From a virus, in the IMG/VR virus record IMGVR_UViG_3300022682_000042, positions 18,542-82,541 of that record: a DNA stretch of 64,000 nt. One strand, 5' to 3'. The position numbers and the translations under genes are program-made. The notes below the pieces were generated by a model that was not told where the DNA came from, searched no databases, and worked only from the letters and a program-made list of their open reading frames with translations. How positions within the stretch are numbered: the first letter of the stretch is position 1; each line of letters begins with the position of its first letter. Shown piece by piece: positions 1,015-52,836 of the stretch.

Positions 1015-2426
1015 GTGGGCCAGGGCAGTTCTATTCAAGCGTATAACGTTGTCTTCATTTATGCAGACAATCAGCATGAATGGAACTGCTCTAGTCCCAG
1101 TGGCGTAGTCTATCGCCATCAAGTGGTTTGAATCGGGCCGGCCAAGGCTGGTCTGGTAGACTCATTCACGTTTCCGGATTCACCGAGTTCCTCAACCCCG
1201 TCATTCAAGACATTCTGATGCCGGCCGATGTGATTATCGTCCAACGTAATGTCATCCATCCCAGGGTTTATGATGCTATGGCCTATTGGCAAGGGATGGG
1301 AAAACCGGTAGTGGTTGATCTGGATGACGCCTACCATTTTTTGCCCTGGTCCAATCCGGCCCGGCCTTTCTGGTTCCTGAAACCCCTGCCGGATGTAGAC
1401 GGGGTAGAACGGGAAGGGGCCGGTATTAGGTTGCTTGAGGAAGGTCTGGTTAGAGCTGACGGTCTGGTAGCCCCGAACAAGCTGTTGTTGGCCGATTGGG
1501 AGTATGCCAGCGGCAATAGTTATTTTATCCAGAATTATGCCGAGCCATCCTGGTGGGGAGTGCCACCCCCCGGCCCGTGGGTTCCATCCGGTCAACAACA
1601 TTGGACCTGTAAAGATGATGACCGGCTCTGGCCCGTTAAGTGGTGGCGAGACAGAAACAGAACGGTCAGGGGCCTACCCCCCCGGTCTATCCTCAAGAAA
1701 GGATTGGGGATAAAAGATAGAATAGTTATTGGGTGGGGTGGGTCGATGTCCCACTATGACAGTTTTTGGGGGAGTGGTCTAATGCAAGCCATCCCCAAAA
1801 TATCGGCCCGATACCCCGAAGTCCTGTGGATGATCTGTGGGGGCGAGAAACGGCTTTATGAACAGTTAGAGGTTCCGGCCCGACAAAAGTTCTGGCAACA
1901 CGGCGTTCCTCCCCAACAATGGCCCGAAATAGTCTGCCGGTTTGACGTGGGCCTGGCCCCCCTGTATGGGCCTTATGACCAGCGTCGGTCCTGGATAAAA
2001 GGAATTGAGTATGCTCTGGCCGGAACCCCGTGGGTTGCTACCAGGGGCGAGACTTACAAGGGCCTGATAGACTGGCCTGCCGGCCTACAAGGGCCGGAAA
2101 GCGCCGAATGGTGGGAAGATAGCTTAGAGGTTATTCTGTCTGACCTTGAGGGCTGGCAGGATAAGGCCGAGGCCCTGTTACCGGAGGCCCGAAAGCGGTT
2201 CATTATTGACAATAACCTGGACAAATACAGTCAGGCTATTAACCAGATGATAGCCGATAAACAACAGGCCGGGCAGGGTGAGGTGGTTCTGCCGAACGTG
2301 ATAAGGATACCAAAAAATGGCAAAAAGGAAAAGGAAGTCAGTCGGGACATCCCGACCGGAGAAATTATCAGTCTTGACGGCCCAGGCCCCAATGGGGTCA
2401 GAGAGGTTGAAATTAAAACCGGGTAA
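1015..2426 (+). CDS. GT-B glycosyltransferase; N-terminus (1015-~1097) is in a different frame from the body (1095-2426)
   Basis: Motifs ADVIIVQR, VVVDLDD, VIGWGGSMSHYD, FDVGLAPL and SWIKGIEYALAGTPWVAT. An RBS plus GTG at 1015 opens YADNQHEWNCS, which needs a -1 shift to join SQWR..LNRAG. Confidence 0.75.
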
Positions 2427-2624
2427 TGTGTTGATGTTGGCTGAGGAGGTTGGGGGTCAATTGCCGACTATTGCCGGGGTTGAGGTAGGACGGGCTTTGA
2501 CTTATGATTTGATACAATTTCTGAATAGGAATTGTTGACCGAAATAGGTTTGGTGATTATCCGAATCATAAATTTGTACCCTATACAGCCAATATTCTTC
2601 GTGTCAATCTCTGTTGCTTAAGCC

Positions 2625-2727
2625 ATATAACGCCCGCCAATAAGCCGCGCCAACGGGACTTGGTTTATAGTTGAGCCTTACAGCCAGAGGCACGTGTCTG
2701 GCGTCGGCTTTATTGGCTTTGTTAGGT
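2625..2727 (-). mobile_element. attC-type recombination site 4
   Basis: Minus strand ACCTAAC-AAAGC-CAATAAAGCCGACGCCA...TGGCGCGGCTTATTG-GCGGGC-GTTATAT. Imperfect inverted repeat with two extra bases on the R''-L'' arm. Confidence 0.8.
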
Positions 2728-2961
2728 TGCGTCTTGGCTATCTTGCATTGCCAGATACAGCCCTAGCACAACTTTGTCCATTACCATTTCAAGATCGGTT
2801 TGCGACCAGATTGCAAACCCTTTTTGCTTGTCAAAAATAGCCTGATTTATTTTGCGACGTTTTAATGGCTTACCTGTTCGCTTATTTAGACCGTAGTCAA
2901 AATCTTCCGTAAGGCACTTTAATATTTTTTTCTTTGCTAACCGTATATCTGATTTGTTCAT
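2722..2961 (-). CDS. Cassette 4 hypothetical protein
   Basis: 79 aa. ATG follows the core site GTTAGGTTGC; the stop lies inside the inverse core GCAACCTAAC. Confidence 0.75.
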   Translation of the reverse strand: MNKSDIRLAKKKILKCLTEDFDYGLNKRTGKPLKRRKINQAIFDKQKGFAIWSQTDLEMVMDKVVLGLYLAMQDSQDAT

Positions 2962-2965
2962 AGCA

Positions 2966-3051
2966 ACCTAACGCCCGCCAATGAGCGGCGGGCTACTGTG
3001 ATTGTTTGTGATGGCCAGAATCAACCGTCCGCTCCATTGGCATTGTTGGGC
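2966..3051 (-). mobile_element. attC-type recombination site 3
   Basis: Minus strand GCCCAAC-AATGC-CAATGGAGCGGACGG...CCGCCGCTCATTG-GCGGGC-GTTAGGT. Confidence 0.8.
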
Positions 3052-3199
3052 GGATGCATACCGGATAGCAATGCTTCTGGTATGATGCGCCCTGAGCGTT
3101 TGGTTGAAAAAAATACATTTTCTGGCCTGCCTCGATAACCGCACCGCATTTGTCACAGGTCGTTATGTAATCGTTGACAACTGGCTCAAAATTAAACAA
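2993..3199 (-). CDS. Cassette 3 small Cys/His-rich hypothetical protein
   Basis: 68 aa with a GAGGTGG RBS and TTG start. CDKC...HCYPVC. The frame reads into attC 3. Confidence 0.55.
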   Translation of the reverse strand: MFNFEPVVNDYITTCDKCGAVIEAGQKMYFFQPNAQGASYQKHCYPVCIRPTMPMERTVDSGHHKQSQ

Positions 3200-3219
3200 G
3201 TTCCACCTCTAAGCTATCC

Positions 3220-3345
3220 GCCTAACGATCTGAGTTGTGGCGATTGCGGGTTGGCTCCACAACTATGATTTACAGAATATTTGCAGCCCCAACCGACCAC
3301 AATTAAAAGCAAGATTAGCAATTCGCTACGAACGACTTGTTAGCT
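3220..3345 (-). mobile_element. attC-type recombination site 2
   Basis: Minus strand AGCTAAC-AAGTC-GTTCGTAGCGAATTGC...GCAATCGCCACAACT-CAGATC-GTTAGGC. Extra C and A on the R''-L'' arm give G and T on the bottom strand. Confidence 0.8.
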
Positions 3346-3573
3346 ACCGTGACGGCTGGCATAGACACGCAAACACCGCTTGCAGGCATTGGCTAACGGT
3401 ACATTTATGGTCATCCGGTAGCCATTAGAATATTTTCCGCTGGTATCAAAACCACGTCCGCAAATTGGCGCACTAATATGTCCGGCTTCAATTAAATTTT
3501 GGCGGCTTTTACCTTCGCCAGCCTCATAAACCAAATGTAACTTTTGACCACCTTTGATTTGCATATAACGCAT
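3340..3573 (-). CDS. Cassette 2 hypothetical protein
   Basis: 77 aa. GGAGG RBS follows the core GTTAGCTACC; the stop lies in the inverse core GGTAGCTAAC. CGR..CKRC. Confidence 0.75.
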   Translation of the reverse strand: MRYMQIKGGQKLHLVYEAGEGKSRQNLIEAGHISAPICGRGFDTSGKYSNGYRMTINVPLANACKRCLRVYASRHGS

Positions 3574-3593
3574 TTTGGCCTCCAAAAGAAGGT

Positions 3594-3718
3594 AGCTAAC
3601 TATTGAGTTGTGGCGATTGCGGGCCAGCACCGAACCGCAACATAATTGATAGATACGCTGGCAAGACTATTTCAAAAATCGCTGTGGTAGCAATTCGCCC
3701 ACCAACGATTTGTTATTA
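3594..3718 (-). mobile_element. attC-type recombination site 1
   Basis: Minus strand TAATAAC-AAATC-GTTGGTGGGCGAATTGC...GCAATCGCCACAACT-CAATA-GTTAGCT. The arms are nearly identical to those of attC 2. Confidence 0.75.
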
Positions 3719-4005
3719 CGGGGTTGGATTACAAAGCCGTATTTCTCTTGCCTCACCCGTTCTTTTTCAACCCAAAGGGCGCGGACATTAGCCACTTTCT
3801 GGTTATCAATTTCACCATCTGTAAATAATATCCCTTCGGGGTCATCGCGGTAATCCCACACCCCGCCAAGTTTAACTTCGCCTGTTTCTCTATCAAAAAC
3901 AACTTCAAGGGCCAACCCTAACGGATGAAAGAACTGCCGGTTCGCCTCTTGCAAAAAACCCTTCTCTTGAAATTCTTTTATGTTTATACGTTTGATTTCT
4001 GGCAT
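3667..4005 (-). CDS. Cassette 1 phage-type hypothetical protein
   Basis: 112 aa with a GGAGG RBS (MPEIKRINIKEFQEKGFLQEANRQFFHPLGLALEV). The frame reads into attC 1. Confidence 0.75.
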   Translation of the reverse strand: MPEIKRINIKEFQEKGFLQEANRQFFHPLGLALEVVFDRETGEVKLGGVWDYRDDPEGILFTDGEIDNQKVANVRALWVEKERVRQEKYGFVIQPRNNKSLVGELLPQRFLK

Positions 4006-4029
4006 CTTGCCTCCGATCTTAAAACAAGT

Positions 4030-4093
4030 ACATAACAATATTATAACATTACACCTTGCTTGATATTATACCCAACCTATGCTATAATGTCAA
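4030..4093. promoter_or_regulatory. attI-like core sites plus superimposed divergent sigma70 promoters
   Basis: Minus: TTGACA(4093-4088)-17-TATAAT(4070-4065), then GTTATAA and GTTATGT cores. Plus: TTGATA(4060-4065)-17-TATAAT(4083-4088), 7 nt before ATG 4096. Confidence 0.75.
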
Positions 4094-4095
4094 AT

Positions 4096-4758
4096 ATGAA
4101 ACCATCAAATGAATTACAACAAAAATTGGACAGTGCCTTTGCCGGCCTGTCCAAGAATACCGTCCGGCTTTACTCTCACTGGATTATTGAGTTGGCCAAA
4201 TTCCACGCGCCGCTCAAACTATCCGAGCTTGAACAATGGTATATTGACCAGTTTTTGGCCTGGATGGTCCGGCCCGGTGAATACTCCCGATCTACTACCA
4301 ATCAGGCCAAAAGGGCGATCCGTCTGTTTTATGAGTCGCTCGGCAGGCCGGTCAATGTACAAATGGTATCGACCCGGCACAAATCCCGACCAGTCGATAC
4401 CATCAGCCGGGAGCAGGTCAAGGAGGTTTTGTCCCGGTTGCCACTGCTGTACCAGATGCTGGCTGGCGACATTTACCACAACCTGACCCGACCCGGCGAG
4501 GTCGTCAAGCAGTCGAGGTCCAGGGGTGGATATACCGCCGTCTCTACCCTAACCAATCACATCAAACAAGCCGGTAAGGAGGCCGGGATTATCAAGCCGG
4601 TAACAGCGATAACACTATATCAGTCCGGCATTGTTCATCGGCTTGAGGATAACGGACCGGTGGCAGTAATGGAACTAACAGGGCTAAAACCAAGTACAAT
4701 TCAGAGGTACTTGAGACAGACTAAAAATAGTGATATAATAAATAAAAAGGGGTTTTAA
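4096..4758 (+). CDS. Shortened, catalytically degenerate integron-integrase-like tyrosine recombinase
   Basis: 220 aa. IntI-like N-terminal SAM domain (SKNTVRLYSHWI..FH..IDQFL..SRSTTNQAKRAIRLFY) and AGIIKPVT. HxxR is replaced by ITLYQS and LGH by TGL. The first Arg (RPGE) and the Tyr (QRY) are kept. Confidence 0.7.
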   Translation: MKPSNELQQKLDSAFAGLSKNTVRLYSHWIIELAKFHAPLKLSELEQWYIDQFLAWMVRPGEYSRSTTNQAKRAIRLFYESLGRPVNVQMVSTRHKSRPVDTISREQVKEVLSRLPLLYQMLAGDIYHNLTRPGEVVKQSRSRGGYTAVSTLTNHIKQAGKEAGIIKPVTAITLYQSGIVHRLEDNGPVAVMELTGLKPSTIQRYLRQTKNSDIINKKGF

Positions 4759-5927
4759 TGAAAACTATTGTAGTTAGCCATCAACCGACTTTTTTACCCA
4801 TTATCCGGCAATTGTCTCAATTAGGATGGACCATTATCACCCTGACCCAACCCTATGCCCAGGAATTGGGCAATCAGGGAATTGAGGCCAAACCTCTGGG
4901 GGCCTTTGGGGGCGAAGGACAAGACTCGGCCTTTGCCTGGGCCGGGGCCTGTATCTCGGCCCTGTCCGGCCTGGAACTGAACGGGGCCGGGCCGGGGCCG
5001 ATAGGTTGGCTCAGACAAAACTCAGTCCCCTTTTACTATCCCAGATTGGCCGACATGGGGATGATCGTTGTCTGTCTTGAAAATCTCAAGCCTGATTTGG
5101 TCTTGCTACATAATGATGTAGAACCGGCGACCAGGGCCGTAGCTCTGTGGGCCAAAACCAAGTCGGTTCCTTGTCTACACATCCCTCACGCTATTTACCA
5201 ACTGGTCAACCGGGGGCCTCTAGGGACCGATGTCCACGACTTGGTAACGGCCTCGAATATCGGGGTGGCCGGCCCTTTCCAGCGGGTCTGGTATGAGGCT
5301 TGTGGGGCTGAACCGGCTAATGTCAGGGAGACCGGCCTGCCTCAGTTCGATGGGTGGGCCACCCGGCAATCGGGGGACCAAAAGAAGGCCAAGAAATTGT
5401 TGGGCCTTGACCCAAACAGGCCGGTAGTAGCTTACGGGGGAACCTGGCCCCAGGGGACCAATGCCGGGGGCCTAAATGATGAATGGCAATTTGTCTACTT
5501 CTCTTTTCTTGAGGCAGCCAACCGGCTTGGCTTTCAGGCTGTAGTCAAATGTCATCCCAGGGGAGGAAAACAGAATTGGGACTGGCACGTGCAACAGGCA
5601 ACCGAGGCCGGCCTGGATGGAGTTGTAACCCCATCTCACCTGGAACAAGTGATAGATGCCTCTGACCTATTTCTGGCCCCCTACGGCTCTAATGTATTGC
5701 TTGAGGCGGCCCATAATCCGGCCTGTCGACTGGCTACGACCCACGGCTATAAGGGAGACAGGGCCGTGGAAAAAGTGCCGATAGACCCAGACGGGATGGC
5801 CGAGGCCCTGGGTAAATTATTGACCGAAGAACCCAGGCCAACCGGGACCTTGTTGGCCAAGTACCTGGGAGACCGGGATGGGTTAGCCTGGCAACGGGTA
5901 GTAGGGTATTGTGAGGAGTTGGCCTGA
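4758..5927 (+). CDS. GT-B fold transferase, capsule-polysaccharide/sialyltransferase-like
   Basis: 389 aa. PDLVLLHND, CLHIPHA, TGLPQFD, VVKCHPRG, SNVLLEAA. The KxHP motif is typical of CMP-/CDP-donor GT-B enzymes. Confidence 0.65.
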   Translation: MKTIVVSHQPTFLPIIRQLSQLGWTIITLTQPYAQELGNQGIEAKPLGAFGGEGQDSAFAWAGACISALSGLELNGAGPGPIGWLRQNSVPFYYPRLADMGMIVVCLENLKPDLVLLHNDVEPATRAVALWAKTKSVPCLHIPHAIYQLVNRGPLGTDVHDLVTASNIGVAGPFQRVWYEACGAEPANVRETGLPQFDGWATRQSGDQKKAKKLLGLDPNRPVVAYGGTWPQGTNAGGLNDEWQFVYFSFLEAANRLGFQAVVKCHPRGGKQNWDWHVQQATEAGLDGVVTPSHLEQVIDASDLFLAPYGSNVLLEAAHNPACRLATTHGYKGDRAVEKVPIDPDGMAEALGKLLTEEPRPTGTLLAKYLGDRDGLAWQRVVGYCEELA

Positions 5928-6403
5928 TGCCCCCAATACGTTTGAAAATTGAGACCCACCCATCTTTAGAGCAAGTCTCTTTACCTTACCGGAAATTTAG
6001 AGAAAAGGATTTGGCCGGGTTTATGGAGACATTAGCCGGGATATTGCATCAAAATATCCAGGATGTTGCCCCAGTTCGAACCGGTGTTGGCCGAAAAAGT
6101 ATTGTTGCTCGAAAAAGAAAAGATTTGGAATGGGCAATCTTAATTGATAGACGGTTTCGGGGTGGGAAATATATGACCTGGCAACATGAAGGGGTTTCAC
6201 CTTCAAAAATAAATCCGATAGTTCCTAGAAAAAAACAGGCCCTTTGGTGGAGTGGGCTTCCTCATCCGATAGCTATTGTCAGAAATCATCCAGGCATTAA
6301 ACGGCTTGGATTTTTCGAGACTGGAATTGAAATGAGTAGAGGAGACCTTGATTCTGCCAGAGATTTGATAGGGGCTGAAATACAAAGAAAGTTTGAGGAA
6401 TAA
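5927..6403 (+). CDS. HK97 gp10-like head-tail joining protein
   Basis: APVRTGVGRKSI and HPGIKRLGFF motifs; basic; lies before the tail genes. Confidence 0.65.
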   Translation: MPPIRLKIETHPSLEQVSLPYRKFREKDLAGFMETLAGILHQNIQDVAPVRTGVGRKSIVARKRKDLEWAILIDRRFRGGKYMTWQHEGVSPSKINPIVPRKKQALWWSGLPHPIAIVRNHPGIKRLGFFETGIEMSRGDLDSARDLIGAEIQRKFEE

Positions 6404-6748
6404 TTATTCTAAGGGAAAAGATAACTGAGACCAGTTTCTCGGTCTAGTAATAACAATAGATTTTTGTTGGTTATCTGGTAAGTTTGTCAATAAAAAGCTT
6501 GACAGTTTGTTGTCAAGATATTTATTTAATTGTTGCGCTAAAAACAAGCTAATATTATCAACAGTATATGAAATTCTTATCAAAATAAAATCATATTTTT
6601 TAGCAAAGTTGTTTTTGATTTGGTCATTTTCTTGAGTTTTTTGTAGGCCATCTTTTCCCCCAAATTCTGCAACTGGTTCAAAGTGTTGCCGCCCATCATA
6701 TTCAATTAAGAACTGTAATTTCCCAATTCTGTAATTACAAAGGGCCAC
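6404..6748 (-). pseudogene. C-terminal remnant of a Vsr/DUF559-like endonuclease
   Basis: LIEYDGRQHF..FGG..QENDQIKNNFAKK..LIRISY. AT-rich, no clear RBS, N-terminal part missing. Confidence 0.55.
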
Positions 6749-7023
6749 CCCTATGGTCTACCCGCAACAGTTTTTGTAAGAACTGACGGCATAGAGGCGG
6801 CCCTTTGTAAGCCAGTTGTCCAAATAAAAAACCGTTGCTTGCAGACAAGAATATTATACCACAATACTTGGACCGACACAAGTACCCCCTTGTCAACCTC
6901 CCCTAATTATGTTATACTATTCCTAGAAATCCCAACGGCCAGCTAGCCCCTGGCCCACAACCTAAAGACAGTAATCAGGCCGAGAGGACCGGCATCCTCT
7001 CGGCCTTTTTGTATTGGAGCAAA

Positions 7024-24820: not shown

Positions 24821-24979
24821 ACGGGCTATGTGGTGGCTAAAATACTCTGTACTAAATTGAATATTGATATGGGACAGGTGATGGCCGACAATATCGAGAA
24901 ATTGCTTGTCAGGTATCCTAATGGCTACTCTTCAGATGATAGTCAAAACAGAATTGACGTTAAAAAGGAGAAAGTGTAA
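24821..24979 (+). pseudogene. C-terminal remnant of a MazG-like nucleotide pyrophosphohydrolase
   Basis: Unlisted frame YVVAKILCTKLNIDMGQVMADNIEKLLVRYPNGYS, preceded by an in-frame TGA; catalytic EExE part absent. Confidence 0.5.
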
Positions 24980-25707
24980 TGGGGAAAAACAGTTCTATCG
25001 AGTGGACCGATTCAACTGTAAATTTTTGGCAAGGCTGCCAGAAGGTTAGCCCCGGCTGCAAAAACTGTTATATGTACCGGGACAAGAAACGGTATGGCCA
25101 AGACCCGGCCACAGTAGTCAGGTCTAGCCCGGCCACATTCAATAAACCGAAGAAGTGGAAAGACCCGGCCCTGGTCTTTACCTGTTCCTGGTCGGACTTT
25201 TTCATCGAACAGGCTGACCCCTGGCGGGATGAAGCCTGGGACATTATCAGGCAGACTCCTCATTTGACTTACCAGATTTTGACAAAGCGGCCCGAACTGG
25301 TCAAGGACCGGTTGCCCGATGATTGGGGCGAGGGGTGGCCCAATGTCTGGCTTGGGGTTAGTATTGAGACTGAGGATTATTACTGGCGGATTATGGCTAT
25401 CGAGGATATTCCGGCAATGGTTAAATTTGTCAGCGCTGAACCCCTGTTAGGGCCATTATCCAACCTGTACAGTTATTTCCCGGTTATTGATTGGGTAATT
25501 ACCGGGGGGGAAAGCGGGCCAAAGTACAGGCCGGCCAACCTGGATTGGTTCCGGGAAATTCGGGATGATTGCCAGAAGTGGGGAGTTCCGTTCTTCCATA
25601 AGCAACATGGAGGGAACCGGAAGGTCGATGGAGTCTGGGGAGGCCGGATGTTGGACGGGCGGGCCTGGGATGAGATGCCGGAAGTTAGAAGTCTTAAAAA
25701 TACTTGA
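24979..25707 (+). CDS. Phage Gp37/Gp68 (DUF5131) family protein
   Basis: SSIEWTDST.N..GCQKVSPGCKNCY, QILTKRP, FVSAEPLLG and WVITGGESG motifs. Confidence 0.9.
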   Translation: MGKNSSIEWTDSTVNFWQGCQKVSPGCKNCYMYRDKKRYGQDPATVVRSSPATFNKPKKWKDPALVFTCSWSDFFIEQADPWRDEAWDIIRQTPHLTYQILTKRPELVKDRLPDDWGEGWPNVWLGVSIETEDYYWRIMAIEDIPAMVKFVSAEPLLGPLSNLYSYFPVIDWVITGGESGPKYRPANLDWFREIRDDCQKWGVPFFHKQHGGNRKVDGVWGGRMLDGRAWDEMPEVRSLKNT

Positions 25708-51014: not shown

Positions 51015-51703
51015 CCGATGAAGTTGTAACCGTTTTACCTGAGACCAATGGCCTGGAATACAATGACCCTCCTCGGCTGGTCTGGGTTCCGGTCAGGGAG
51101 GCAGTTGGATTATTGTGGGCCGGGAATCCTAAACTCCACTCGATTGGAGATTTAGTTCAGTCCATTGAACGATATGGCCTGCAAGAATTACCTAAATTTG
51201 ACGCCAACCTGGAAAACAGGGGTGGGGGCCGGGGAGCGATTGTAGCTGGCAATGGCCGGGTCGAGGCTTTAGCCTGGATGGAACAGGATGGCCGGGATTT
51301 ACCCAGGGGAATAGCCAAAGGACCGGATGGGGCCTGGGCCTTGCCGGTCCTGGCCGGGGTAGATCAACCTTCGGAGGAGATGGCGGCGGCCTACGCGGTG
51401 GACTCCAATAACCTGACTTTGGCCGGGGGTGGTTTTGATGCTTTCGACATGGCCCGACTGTGGGATGAAGAGGCTTATGTGGCCCTGGTAGAGTCGTTGG
51501 GGGATATGAGGCCGGTCACGGTAGACGGGGAGGCTTTGGATGCCTTGATAGGAATGAATGGAAATCAAAACAAAAAAACAGAACCGATAGATATACTACC
51601 AGAATACGCTATTTTGATTGAGTGTGACAGTGAACAGGCACAGGTTGTTGCATTGGAAGAATTAGTGGGGTTGGGCTATCAATGCCGAGCTTTAATATCA
51701 TAA
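51011..51703 (+). CDS. ParB/sulfiredoxin-like protein
   Basis: NPKLH..SIERYG..IVAGNGRVEAL..AYAVDSNNL. Confidence 0.7.
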   Translation: MTDEVVTVLPETNGLEYNDPPRLVWVPVREAVGLLWAGNPKLHSIGDLVQSIERYGLQELPKFDANLENRGGGRGAIVAGNGRVEALAWMEQDGRDLPRGIAKGPDGAWALPVLAGVDQPSEEMAAAYAVDSNNLTLAGGGFDAFDMARLWDEEAYVALVESLGDMRPVTVDGEALDALIGMNGNQNKKTEPIDILPEYAILIECDSEQAQVVALEELVGLGYQCRALIS

Positions 51704-52836
51704 GACAAGTTGACATAGAGCGGACGCCGCGAGTAATGCAACTGGAAGGCATCTTTGACGTTGCGCCGTCACAACGAAGTGAAGAGCGATGGCAAGGCGA
51801 GATTGACTTGCCAGACGATTGGAATATTGGCGTTATCGTTGGTCCGTCTGGCTCCGGCAAAACGACATTGGCACATGAGCTATTCCCTGATTTCATTGTC
51901 AATTGCTACGATTGGCCGGATAGCAAGAGTATTGTTGACGCCTTCCCAGATGGCTTGAGTATCAAAGATATTACCGGCTATCTGTCATCTGTCGGGTTTT
52001 CTTCCCCGCCGTCGTGGTTGCGTCCGTTTCGGGTATTGTCGAATGGTGAGCAATTCCGGGCGACGCTGGCCAGGGCTTTGGCCGATGAGCGAGAGTTGAT
52101 TGTCATAGATGAATTTACCAGTGTCGTTGATAGGACTGTGGCTCAGATTGGTAGTGCGGCATTATCCAAAGCAATCAGGCGTAAGGGCAAAAAGTTTATT
52201 GCCGTTTCTGTGCATTATGACATTCTGGATTGGCTTGAGCCGGATTGGGTGTATCAGCCTCACACAGGCGAATATTACACCGGGAGGTATCTTCACCGGA
52301 GACCGGAGATTAAGCTCAAAGTTAAACGGGTTCATCACTCCGCTTGGCGAATATTCCGGCAGTATCATTATTTAGACACCGGCCTGAATACGGCAGCGGT
52401 TTGCTTTTGCGCTTTTTACGATGGGAGGCCGGTGGCGTTTACGGCAGCGTTGCACTTCCCGCACCCAAAGGCAAAGAATATCAAACGGGAACATCGGACG
52501 GTTTGCTTGCCGGACTTTCAAGGTGTGGGAATTGGGAACGCTCTGAGTGATTATGTTGGAGCGATGTTTAAGACGGTTGGGTATCGGTGGCAGTCTCAAA
52601 CGAGCAATCCAGCAATGATACACGCTAGAAATAGGTCGAAAAATTGGGCGATGATTGCGAGGCCAAATAGAAAATCTAAAACTATGCCTAAGCAATCATT
52701 TTCTGGAAAAAGAAAGGGTACGTCTGGCCCAGGGGCCGGACGTACCGGAGGATTAACAAAACGATTGCGAGCCACATTTGAATATGTTGGTTCGGCACTT
52801 GATAAACAAGAGGCAATAAAAATTATGAGTGATTAA
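51682..52836 (+). CDS. ABC-type ATPase fused to a GNAT acetyltransferase
   Basis: GPSGSGKT, LSNGEQFR and IDEFTSVVDR; then YHYL, RTVCLPDFQGVGIG. Confidence 0.85.
   Translation: MPSFNIIRQVDIERTPRVMQLEGIFDVAPSQRSEERWQGEIDLPDDWNIGVIVGPSGSGKTTLAHELFPDFIVNCYDWPDSKSIVDAFPDGLSIKDITGYLSSVGFSSPPSWLRPFRVLSNGEQFRATLARALADERELIVIDEFTSVVDRTVAQIGSAALSKAIRRKGKKFIAVSVHYDILDWLEPDWVYQPHTGEYYTGRYLHRRPEIKLKVKRVHHSAWRIFRQYHYLDTGLNTAAVCFCAFYDGRPVAFTAALHFPHPKAKNIKREHRTVCLPDFQGVGIGNALSDYVGAMFKTVGYRWQSQTSNPAMIHARNRSKNWAMIARPNRKSKTMPKQSFSGKRKGTSGPGAGRTGGLTKRLRATFEYVGSALDKQEAIKIMSD

Follow-up and report, generated by a model that had tools for sequence, protein, structure and literature searches.

Integrons are viewed as bacterial gene-capture devices, and the locus described here raises the question of whether a phage can carry such a device and which enzyme would then load it. 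The locus lies at positions 2625-4758 of a 64,000-nucleotide stretch of viral DNA (hereafter the window), which covers bases 18542-82541 of the IMG/VR record IMGVR_UViG_3300022682_000042. This record has 82,541 bases, belongs to the linear class, and is 100% complete according to CheckV; as it encodes tape measure, Dit, minor and major tail proteins, portal, and large terminase (PHROG matches), it represents a tailed phage. An earlier note, made from the letters of the window without database searches, had described the block as having the layout of an integron, and all parts of that layout were found: an attI site, a cassette promoter (Pc), co-oriented cassettes bounded by attC sites, and a divergent gene related to integron integrases (IntI). 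On comparative sequence evidence, the block was shown to be a genuine integron-type module in a tailed phage. The IntI-related gene encodes a short protein, here termed mini-IntI, and we consider it probable (roughly 0.6) that the module is a phage-borne docking platform that would be served in trans by the IntI of the host.

The attC sites were identified with a covariance model, R1, which was trained solely on 12 sites from two other phages (alignment A5) and on none from the window. These two relatives, IMGVR_UViG_3300035130_000101 (L002/G001; 70,303 bases) and IMGVR_UViG_3300042731_008413 (L046/G409; 83,420 bases), were reached via the mini-IntI protein, stem from other metagenomes than the window record, carry direct terminal repeats, and are rated 100% complete; they are referred to below as the 70-kb and the 83-kb relative, and the present phage genome as G000. 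R1 replaced a local-alignment stem scoring that had recovered the sites together with chance pairs elsewhere. The structure of A5 consists of 17 base pairs, formed by the R boxes and L boxes, and leaves a single base of the 3' arm unpaired. In this structure, 82.4% of the cells pair, compared to 36-45% when the partners were slid by 1-3 columns, and the covariation score of 0.467 (0.160 in shuffles) was reached by none of 500 shuffles. As 10 of the 11 pairs of the L-helix vary on both sides, it is the structure of attC that is conserved and not its sequence. When R1 was run over the full 64-kb window on both strands, exactly four matches were obtained at E <= 1e-4, all on the plus strand and within 1.1 kb, with the next match at E = 2. 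Their coordinates and lengths (126, 86, 103, and 125 nt) are those of the four attC-type sites of 86-126 bp that the earlier note had claimed:

2625..2727, plus strand: attC of cassette 4, the last of the array; 103 nt; R1 35.0 bits, E 7e-7; bulged hairpin fold, z = -3.4
2966..3051, plus strand: attC of cassette 3; 86 nt; R1 45.2 bits, E 1.8e-9; fold z = -2.8
3220..3345, plus strand: attC of cassette 2; 126 nt; R1 60.7 bits, E 2e-13; aligns with bacterial attC sites and is of a type common to Chloroflexota integrons
3594..3718, plus strand: attC of cassette 1; 125 nt; R1 26.5 bits, E 1e-4; same type as 3220-3345

Beyond the training sites, R1 had no match in the remaining 18.6 kb of G000, in all of G001, or in L046, and no Rfam family matched the attC sites, the best match within 2000-5500 being an unrelated frameshift element (E 0.038). 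All four elements begin with ...TAAC and end with GTTA... on the plus strand, and the sites at 3594-3718 and 3220-3345 have a 20-nt exact repeat in common (repeat family D3). The unpaired bases that had been seen on the R''-L'' arm were recovered in 15 of 16 aligned sites as 2-4 extra bases on the plus-strand 3' arm, which is the bottom strand's R''-L'' arm, and 11 of the 16 had no extra bases on the 5' arm (the script misaligned one site). The plus strand is thus the bottom (recombined) strand, consistent with the four minus-strand genes. Minimum free energy folding of the bottom strands, proposed in the earlier note as a check, produced a full hairpin in just two cases, the shorter sites A and B (z = -3.4 and -2.8). 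In all, the sites are what Cury et al. (2016; PMC4889954) describe as attC: imperfect AAC...GTT palindromes of conserved structure and variable sequence and length, with extrahelical bases on one arm.

Each attC site comes after one small open reading frame (ORF), and all four ORFs are on the minus strand, as had been read from the sequence before. With borders inferred from the AA|C position on the plus strand, the cassettes are as follows (each cassette's 5' end compared to its own R''):

2631..2971, minus strand: cassette 4, 341 bp; ORF 2722-2961, 79 aa, no family; stop codon within the inverse core; 7/7
2972..3225, minus strand: cassette 3, 254 bp; ORF 2993-3199, 68 aa, Cys-rich, no family; 6/7
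3226..3599, minus strand: cassette 2, 374 bp; ORF 3340-3573, 77 aa, with a GGAGG ribosome-binding site ahead of it; 7/7
3600..4035, minus strand: cassette 1, 436 bp; ORF 3667-4005, 112 aa; phrog_3954, E 6e-12; 2/7

Within integron arrays, it is the following cassette that supplies the outer bases of an attC core. The 5' end of a cassette is therefore expected to complement the inverse core that belongs to its own attC and not the one of the adjoining site. We scored this complementarity over 7 bases on the outer side of AAC/GTT, using the attI junction for the first cassettes. The core/inverse-core match reported earlier for cassettes 2-4 held (7/7, 6/7, and 7/7), and the first cassettes of the 70-kb and the 83-kb relative gave 6/7 and 7/7 with their own attC. 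Over 16 cassettes from the three phages, 102 of 112 outer bases were complementary to the cassette's own R'', compared to 55 of 112 within single sites and a mean of 65.5 +/- 5.0 for permuted partners; 102 was reached by 0 of 100,000 permutations. As judged from these borders, the cassettes were shown to have entered as circles through G|TT site-specific recombination, which is how the earlier note had interpreted the complementarity.

The cassettes are compositionally foreign to the phage, and the mini-IntI gene is phage-like. GGCC and CCGG occur at 3.5 and 2.8 per kb in the array versus 15.9 and 13.6 in the entire window and 21.6-29.9 and 15.4-16.2 in the flanking genes, confirming that the block lacks the bias of its flanks. 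The products of the cassettes are largely anonymous. The cassette 1 protein has at least 1264 related clusters of ~100-aa hypothetical proteins, the look-alikes of the cassette 2 protein in the Atlas are hypothetical proteins from viruses and bacteria, and the Atlas search of the cassette proteins returned hypothetical proteins only. The window's four cassette proteins had no credible Pfam or NCBIfam match, none of 10 cassette proteins matched the PADLOC defence-system models, and tblastn of the cassette proteins against the bacterial loci examined gave no match.

At the head of the array lie the attI site, two superimposed promoters, and the mini-IntI gene:

4033..4060, minus strand: attI, with the cassette junction TAAC|AATAT on the plus strand, equal to G|TTA on the cassette strand; 86% identical over 64 nt with the 70-kb relative (blastn)
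4093->4065, minus strand: Pc-like promoter TTGACA-17-TATAAT, 12/12 by consensus match only; reads into the array; conserved in both relatives
4060->4088, plus strand: predicted divergent promoter TTGATA-17-TATAAT with TG for the mini-IntI gene, 11/12 consensus; superimposed on the Pc-like promoter
4096..4758, plus strand: mini-IntI gene, 220 aa if started at the ATG at 4096, 223 aa if started at 4087

In the alignment of the three phages (A7), the cassette side is unrelated, and conservation starts exactly at TAAC|AATAT and continues through both promoters into the mini-IntI gene; this point is therefore the attI crossover. The attI site thus placed adjoins the integrase-derived gene and has the G|TT insertion point, and the perfect TTGACA-17-TATAAT promoter pointed out in the earlier note (12/12, minus strand) directs, as a prediction from sequence consensus, into promoterless co-oriented cassettes; both arrangements are those that Cury et al. 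give for attI and Pc. The divergent promoter would imply a nearly leaderless mini-IntI message from the ATG at 4096.

The divergent IntI-like gene of the earlier note is indeed IntI-derived and divergent, but it is truncated, lacks PF00589, and has lost most catalytic residues. Mini-IntI consists of an N-terminal SAM-like core-binding domain (PF13495, E 4.5e-14) and a trimmed remnant of the catalytic domain, with no match to PF00589. Its best NCBIfam match is the integron integrase family TIGR02249, at 50.7 bits versus a cut-off of 265. Of VchIntIA (2a3v), the best solved sequence, it aligns only to residues 19-123 and 245-287. The aligned parts are the N-terminal domain and those helices that surround the tyrosine and the HxxR box; some 100 internal residues are absent, and from the catalytic set mini-IntI lacks the lysine, the two histidines, and one or both arginines. 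Aligned with four true Chloroflexota IntIs (A6), the mini-IntI family is seen to have lost the lysine hairpin as well as the IntI-specific segment, and other residues stand in place of both catalytic histidines (H-II and H-III). The position of R-II holds Y in the window protein and varies between Y, H, R, and Q within the family; R-I persists in the proteins of the window and the 70-kb relative only, all other members having P, A, or D instead. No arginine is conserved family-wide, and the two arginines never occur together in an aligned member; one histidine is almost invariant. Of the residues R-K-H-R-H/W-Y of an active tyrosine recombinase, only Y is conserved. A PF00589 domain was also found nowhere in the complete genomes G000 and G001 (both 100% complete). 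The earlier claim that the phage has its own platform for capturing and shuffling genes therefore stands with respect to the platform, which is conserved, but not with respect to an enzyme of its own, as the complete genome encodes no tyrosine recombinase.

Truncated as it is, the mini-IntI gene has not simply decayed. The ratio of nonsynonymous to synonymous substitution rates (dN/dS) between the window copy and that of the 70-kb relative is 0.12, with values of 0.13 and 0.10 when the halves are taken separately and with dS near saturation (about 1.2), and the gene is under purifying selection. An AlphaFold2 model of the protein reached a predicted local distance difference test score (pLDDT) of 90.6, with 2a3v as the best fold match (E 1.8e-8; template modelling score 0.59, normalised to the query), and suggests that both DNA-clamping lobes are retained. 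An exhaustive profile search against 1.84 billion representatives returned 15 clusters at E < 1e-10, all of 183-236 aa and with near end-to-end coverage; full-length recombinases appeared only from E about 1e-8 on, via the N-terminal part alone. Among 401 sampled Chloroflexota genomes, the family profile matched 29, covering only profile positions up to about 128; the ORFs concerned have 105 to 420 aa, mostly about 290-420 aa, and an end-to-end match occurred in none of the 401 genomes. TIGR02249 was the top family for all 10 of the best Chloroflexota matches tested, 8 of them full-length with 445-486 bits. The family was not found in the metagenome contigs scanned. Mini-IntI thus represents an old, apparently phage-borne, IntI-derived family, all of whose members are short, and this shortness of all members implies that the shortening predates the split of the three modules. 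Judged by sequence, mini-IntI is not an integrase: it is a conserved derivative of ~220 aa, selected yet non-catalytic.

If the platform is conserved, does its cargo change? The arrays comprise 4 cassettes in the window, 4 in the 83-kb relative, and about 10-11 in the 70-kb relative. The window array has no cassette in common with either relative, and all three first cassettes differ. One cassette is common to the two relatives (86.5% over 437 nt); it stands second among ~11 cassettes in one array and closes the array of 4 in the other. The first cassette of the 83-kb relative encodes a Mom-family DNA-modification protein (45 bits versus a cut-off of 27.1). Content and order thus vary among relatives, which is what Cury et al. 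take as the mark of cassette mobility. The earlier note had proposed this comparison of cassette content and order and had named identical gene content in all relatives, as well as a chimeric assembly with host DNA, as outcomes that would speak against it; since the relatives have different cassettes, these objections fail to refute it. The same module on two other phage records from other metagenomes means that it belongs to a phage and is not an assembly chimera. Since the shortening of mini-IntI preceded the split of the modules and their first cassettes differ, the enzyme that inserted these cassettes would have come from elsewhere, most simply as the IntI of the infected cell.

The carriers of the module are dissimilar. 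Apart from the module, the three loci have nothing significant in common over flanks of 8-10 kb. Between the whole genomes of G000 and G001, the similarity is limited to the module, two further high-identity genes, and weakly similar tail genes, and the position of the module relative to the tail genes differs between them. With dissimilar carriers around a conserved module, the module either moves between phages or persists through heavy mosaicism.

Some further features of these and other phage records were observed. The genes at 51682-52836 and 24944-25679 of the window have about 80-94% and about 77% protein identity to genes of G001, one being phrog_11143 of unknown function; these segments look like mosaic modules swapped between phages that probably share hosts. 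In the 83-kb relative, a second, two-site attC cluster is present (L070:2968-3091 and 3424-3518, about 66.9-67.5 kb of the record; R1 57.9 and 27.7 bits), about 54 kb from the main array and far from the mini-IntI gene, and it may be a secondary insertion site. The 54-kb, 76% complete record IMGVR_UViG_3300031653_000003 has one attC-type match (L067:1288-1407, 25.4 bits) together with the 19-mer of the larger attC type and contains no mini-IntI family member; IMGVR_UViG_3300002231_000649 has the 19-mer and no R1 match. In the 70-kb relative, a 398-aa ORF (L002:2652-3848) is located beside the far end of the array, with repeated helix-turn-helix-like units and a LAGLIDADG-like tail, as read from the translation, and a 99-aa ORF of Gly-Tyr-Gly-Asp/Ser repeats lies past the mini-IntI gene (L002:9146-9445).

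The attC sites point to a particular group of bacteria. The 19-mer of the larger attC type was found in 27 contigs of bacteria, and 12 of these are labelled as Chloroflexota lineages. A full-length R1 match (E <= 0.01) was obtained in 12 of the 27, and 11 of these 12 are Chloroflexota-labelled; the twelfth is in a Pseudomonadales-labelled bin from a co-assembly shared with a Caldilineaceae bin. An IntI above the family cut-off was found in 3 of 5 tested genomes having this attC type. A Caldilineaceae metagenome-assembled genome has this attC type at a distance of 3.6 kb from the gene of a true IntI (459 bits), in the relative orientation seen in the phage, and the R'' 11-mer, the complement of the outer end of attC, recurs about 390 bp upstream of intI, where 0 would be expected by chance. 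The comparisons show the attC type of the phage to be, at the level of sequence, that of chromosomal integrons in Chloroflexota (Caldilineaceae, Anaerolineales, and Promineifilaceae). The sedentary integrons of these chromosomes resemble the phage module in attC sequence type (alignment A9), in the relative orientation of intI and attC, and in the R'/R'' signature, and their IntIs are the closest full-length relatives of mini-IntI. They differ in that the bacteria have an IntI of 320-330 aa (445-486 bits), whereas the phage platform has neither a full IntI nor a GAAC-N4-GTTT motif. This motif was observed upstream of true intI in two of the three Chloroflexota regions (L059 at about 16,300 and L060 at about 16,520); as an unverified guess, it may be a LexA-type box. 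Separately, two Chloroflexia genomes, G005 and G006 (L038, L039, and L041), contain several ORFs of 306-308 aa, with four copies in one genome, that match the integron-integrase model only over positions 3-181 with about 108-116 bits, below the cut-off, and that may be another IntI-related family.

With respect to the surroundings of the module, the earlier note had placed it between two glycosyltransferases in the structural region. The module indeed sits immediately upstream of the tail genes, but the flanking genes match glycosyltransferases only below the Pfam threshold (22.1 bits versus a cut-off of 27; E 0.006-0.007). A search for close relatives of the right-hand flanking gene in viral contigs found none. 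The stop of the mini-IntI gene overlaps the start of the following phage gene, and a third near-consensus promoter, TTGAGA-17-TATAAT with TG (11/12), is found at 4711-4739 within the mini-IntI 3' end, directed into the gene at 4758. Further downstream, an AT-rich block at 6404-6900 of the window (GC 0.40 across 6001-7000) contains a lone minus-strand ORF of 114 aa (6404-6748) amid head-tail genes; it had only a weak RAP-domain match (E 0.02) and resembles a separate inserted gene without attC.

How does the module relate to known systems? The earlier note was not aware of a described case, but such cases are in print: Qi et al. (2023; PMC9892861), in the parts of that article used here, described complete integrons, In0, and attC clusters without an integron integrase (CALINs) in phage genomes, namely 3 complete integrons, 1 In0, and 17 CALINs among 10,705 NCBI phage genomes. 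Integron parts in phages are thus already published. As in the present module, the cassettes of those phages, virulent ones included, are co-oriented and bounded by attC, and their DNA methyltransferase cargo and the Mom-like cassette of the 83-kb relative are both of counter-defence type. The cases of Qi et al. are, as reported there, sporadic and interpreted as pieces captured from hosts or as small groups of 2-3 sites, whereas here three dissimilar uncultured phages have variable arrays that are headed by a conserved attI, Pc, and IntI-derived gene. By the definitions of Cury et al. (2016; PMC4889954), as far as the sections drawn on here go, an integron integrase has PF00589 plus the IntI-specific segment, a combination found neither in mini-IntI nor in the genome, and the module is a CALIN and not a complete integron; a standard tool would probably report it as such. 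It resembles the CALINs beside intI pseudogenes of that study in having at least 2 attC sites, no protein with PF00589 and the IntI-specific segment, and an adjacent intI remnant. It differs from them in that the remnant is intact, selected, family-forming, equipped with its own consensus promoter, and not frameshifted. In the literature on phage integrons, truncated or inactive integrases, Chloroflexi integrons, and viral cassettes, we found no description of a conserved platform headed by a dead IntI, the full CALIN list of Qi et al., which is supplementary, being outside that scope.

In the mechanism that we favor, the IntI of the infected host would catalyze the capture of cassettes at the phage attI, and their excision, in trans; mini-IntI would bind the attI/promoter region as a non-catalytic partner or switch, and the cargo would serve the phage, one relative having a Mom-like first cassette. 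A precedent for action in trans is that IntI1 recombined 5 of 6 attC sites from virulent phages with attI1 (Qi et al., 2023, in the parts used). Several points weigh against this reading. The identification of attC depends on our own model from sister phages and not on the published IntegronFinder/HattCI thresholds, and the folding check was successful only in part: the two 125-nt sites, C and D, fold no better than shuffles (z = -0.35 and -0.85), as 67 and 45 of 200 shuffles, respectively, equal them. Cassette 1 of the window does not show ungapped cognate complementarity (2/7), with 8/8 seen by eye if one inserted base is tolerated. In A6, an alignment of 12 sequences, the nucleophile tyrosine does not vary, which makes the dismissal of a catalytic role less than complete. 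Of the 18 family members in the A2 alignment, 3 have a known genomic context, with the same module in all 3. The phages are mosaic, and the differences between arrays could also come from homologous exchange of entire modules. Finally, we infer the host from attC similarity alone, and the phage attI showed no clear similarity to three bacterial intI-upstream regions.

The alternatives differ in what they make of mini-IntI. The module could be an inert fossil, a captured piece of a host chromosomal integron whose integrase decayed and in which nothing is mobile now, as there is no catalytic domain in mini-IntI or the genome, temperate phages have been documented to capture host integron fragments (Qi et al., 2023, in the parts used), and intI pseudogenes lie near 15 of 279 CALINs in the data quoted from Cury et al. 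(2016). We regard this as unlikely, as a fossil would not be expected to show purifying selection in both halves of the protein (dN/dS 0.12), an old and all-short family without an end-to-end match in any of the 401 sampled Chloroflexota genomes, different first cassettes at an identical attI junction in three phages, a shared cassette at different array positions, or compositionally unameliorated cassettes next to a phage-like mini-IntI gene. Somewhat less doubtful is that mini-IntI mainly regulates the superimposed promoters, or acts as a blocker that shields attI and attC from the host IntI, with the arrays differing mostly by homologous module exchange between co-infecting phages. Two face-to-face consensus promoters overlap the mini-IntI start and attI, both DNA-binding lobes appear to be kept in the confident AlphaFold2 model, and the mosaic genomes G000 and G001 share few high-identity modules only, all of which would suit such a role. 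Homologous exchange, however, leaves unexplained the precise G|TT attI-cassette junctions with a match to the cassette's own attC (6/7 and 7/7 in the two relatives), and regulation and partnering may coexist, so that this alternative is compatible with the docking platform.

That mini-IntI is a minimal recombinase with an unconventional active site appears very improbable to us. It would agree with the invariant tyrosine aligned to the nucleophile and the nearly invariant histidine (A6), with the tyrosine-recombinase fold that the model predicts to be kept, and with the lack of any other recombinase in G000 or G001. It is opposed by the lack of a family-wide arginine, with R-I being P, A, or D in most members, R-II being Y, H, R, or Q, and none having both, and by the deletion of the lysine hairpin and the IntI-specific segments. 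An assembly chimera of phage and host DNA, which the composition of the array, unlike that of its flanks, might suggest, has next to no probability, as the same module lies inside two other complete phage records with direct terminal repeats from other samples, and as the adjoining mini-IntI gene is phage-like in composition and overlaps with its stop the start of the next phage gene. For the role of mini-IntI, we rank an attI-bound, non-cleaving partner of the host IntI first, a promoter switch or blocker second, and an unconventional recombinase last. A more specific version, in which mini-IntI is a phage-made non-cleaving subunit that sits on the phage attI and forms a hybrid synapse with the host IntI, and in which the platform travels between unrelated Chloroflexota phages, is tentative and stays well below an even chance.

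What is distinctive here is that a docking site, a promoter, and an inactive integrase-derived protein are conserved across dissimilar phages, while the cargo turns over and the sites are those of the likely host phylum. If the host IntI serves the platform, phages can tap a very large environmental pool of cassettes, e.g., for counter-defence genes, and ferry cassettes between bacteria. Should the hybrid synapse be real, a phage without a recombinase would redirect a host enzyme and draw cassettes from the host integron pool during infection. Mini-IntI would be a natural, selected, non-catalytic integrase variant, and as such a handle on separating attI recognition and synapse assembly from catalysis.

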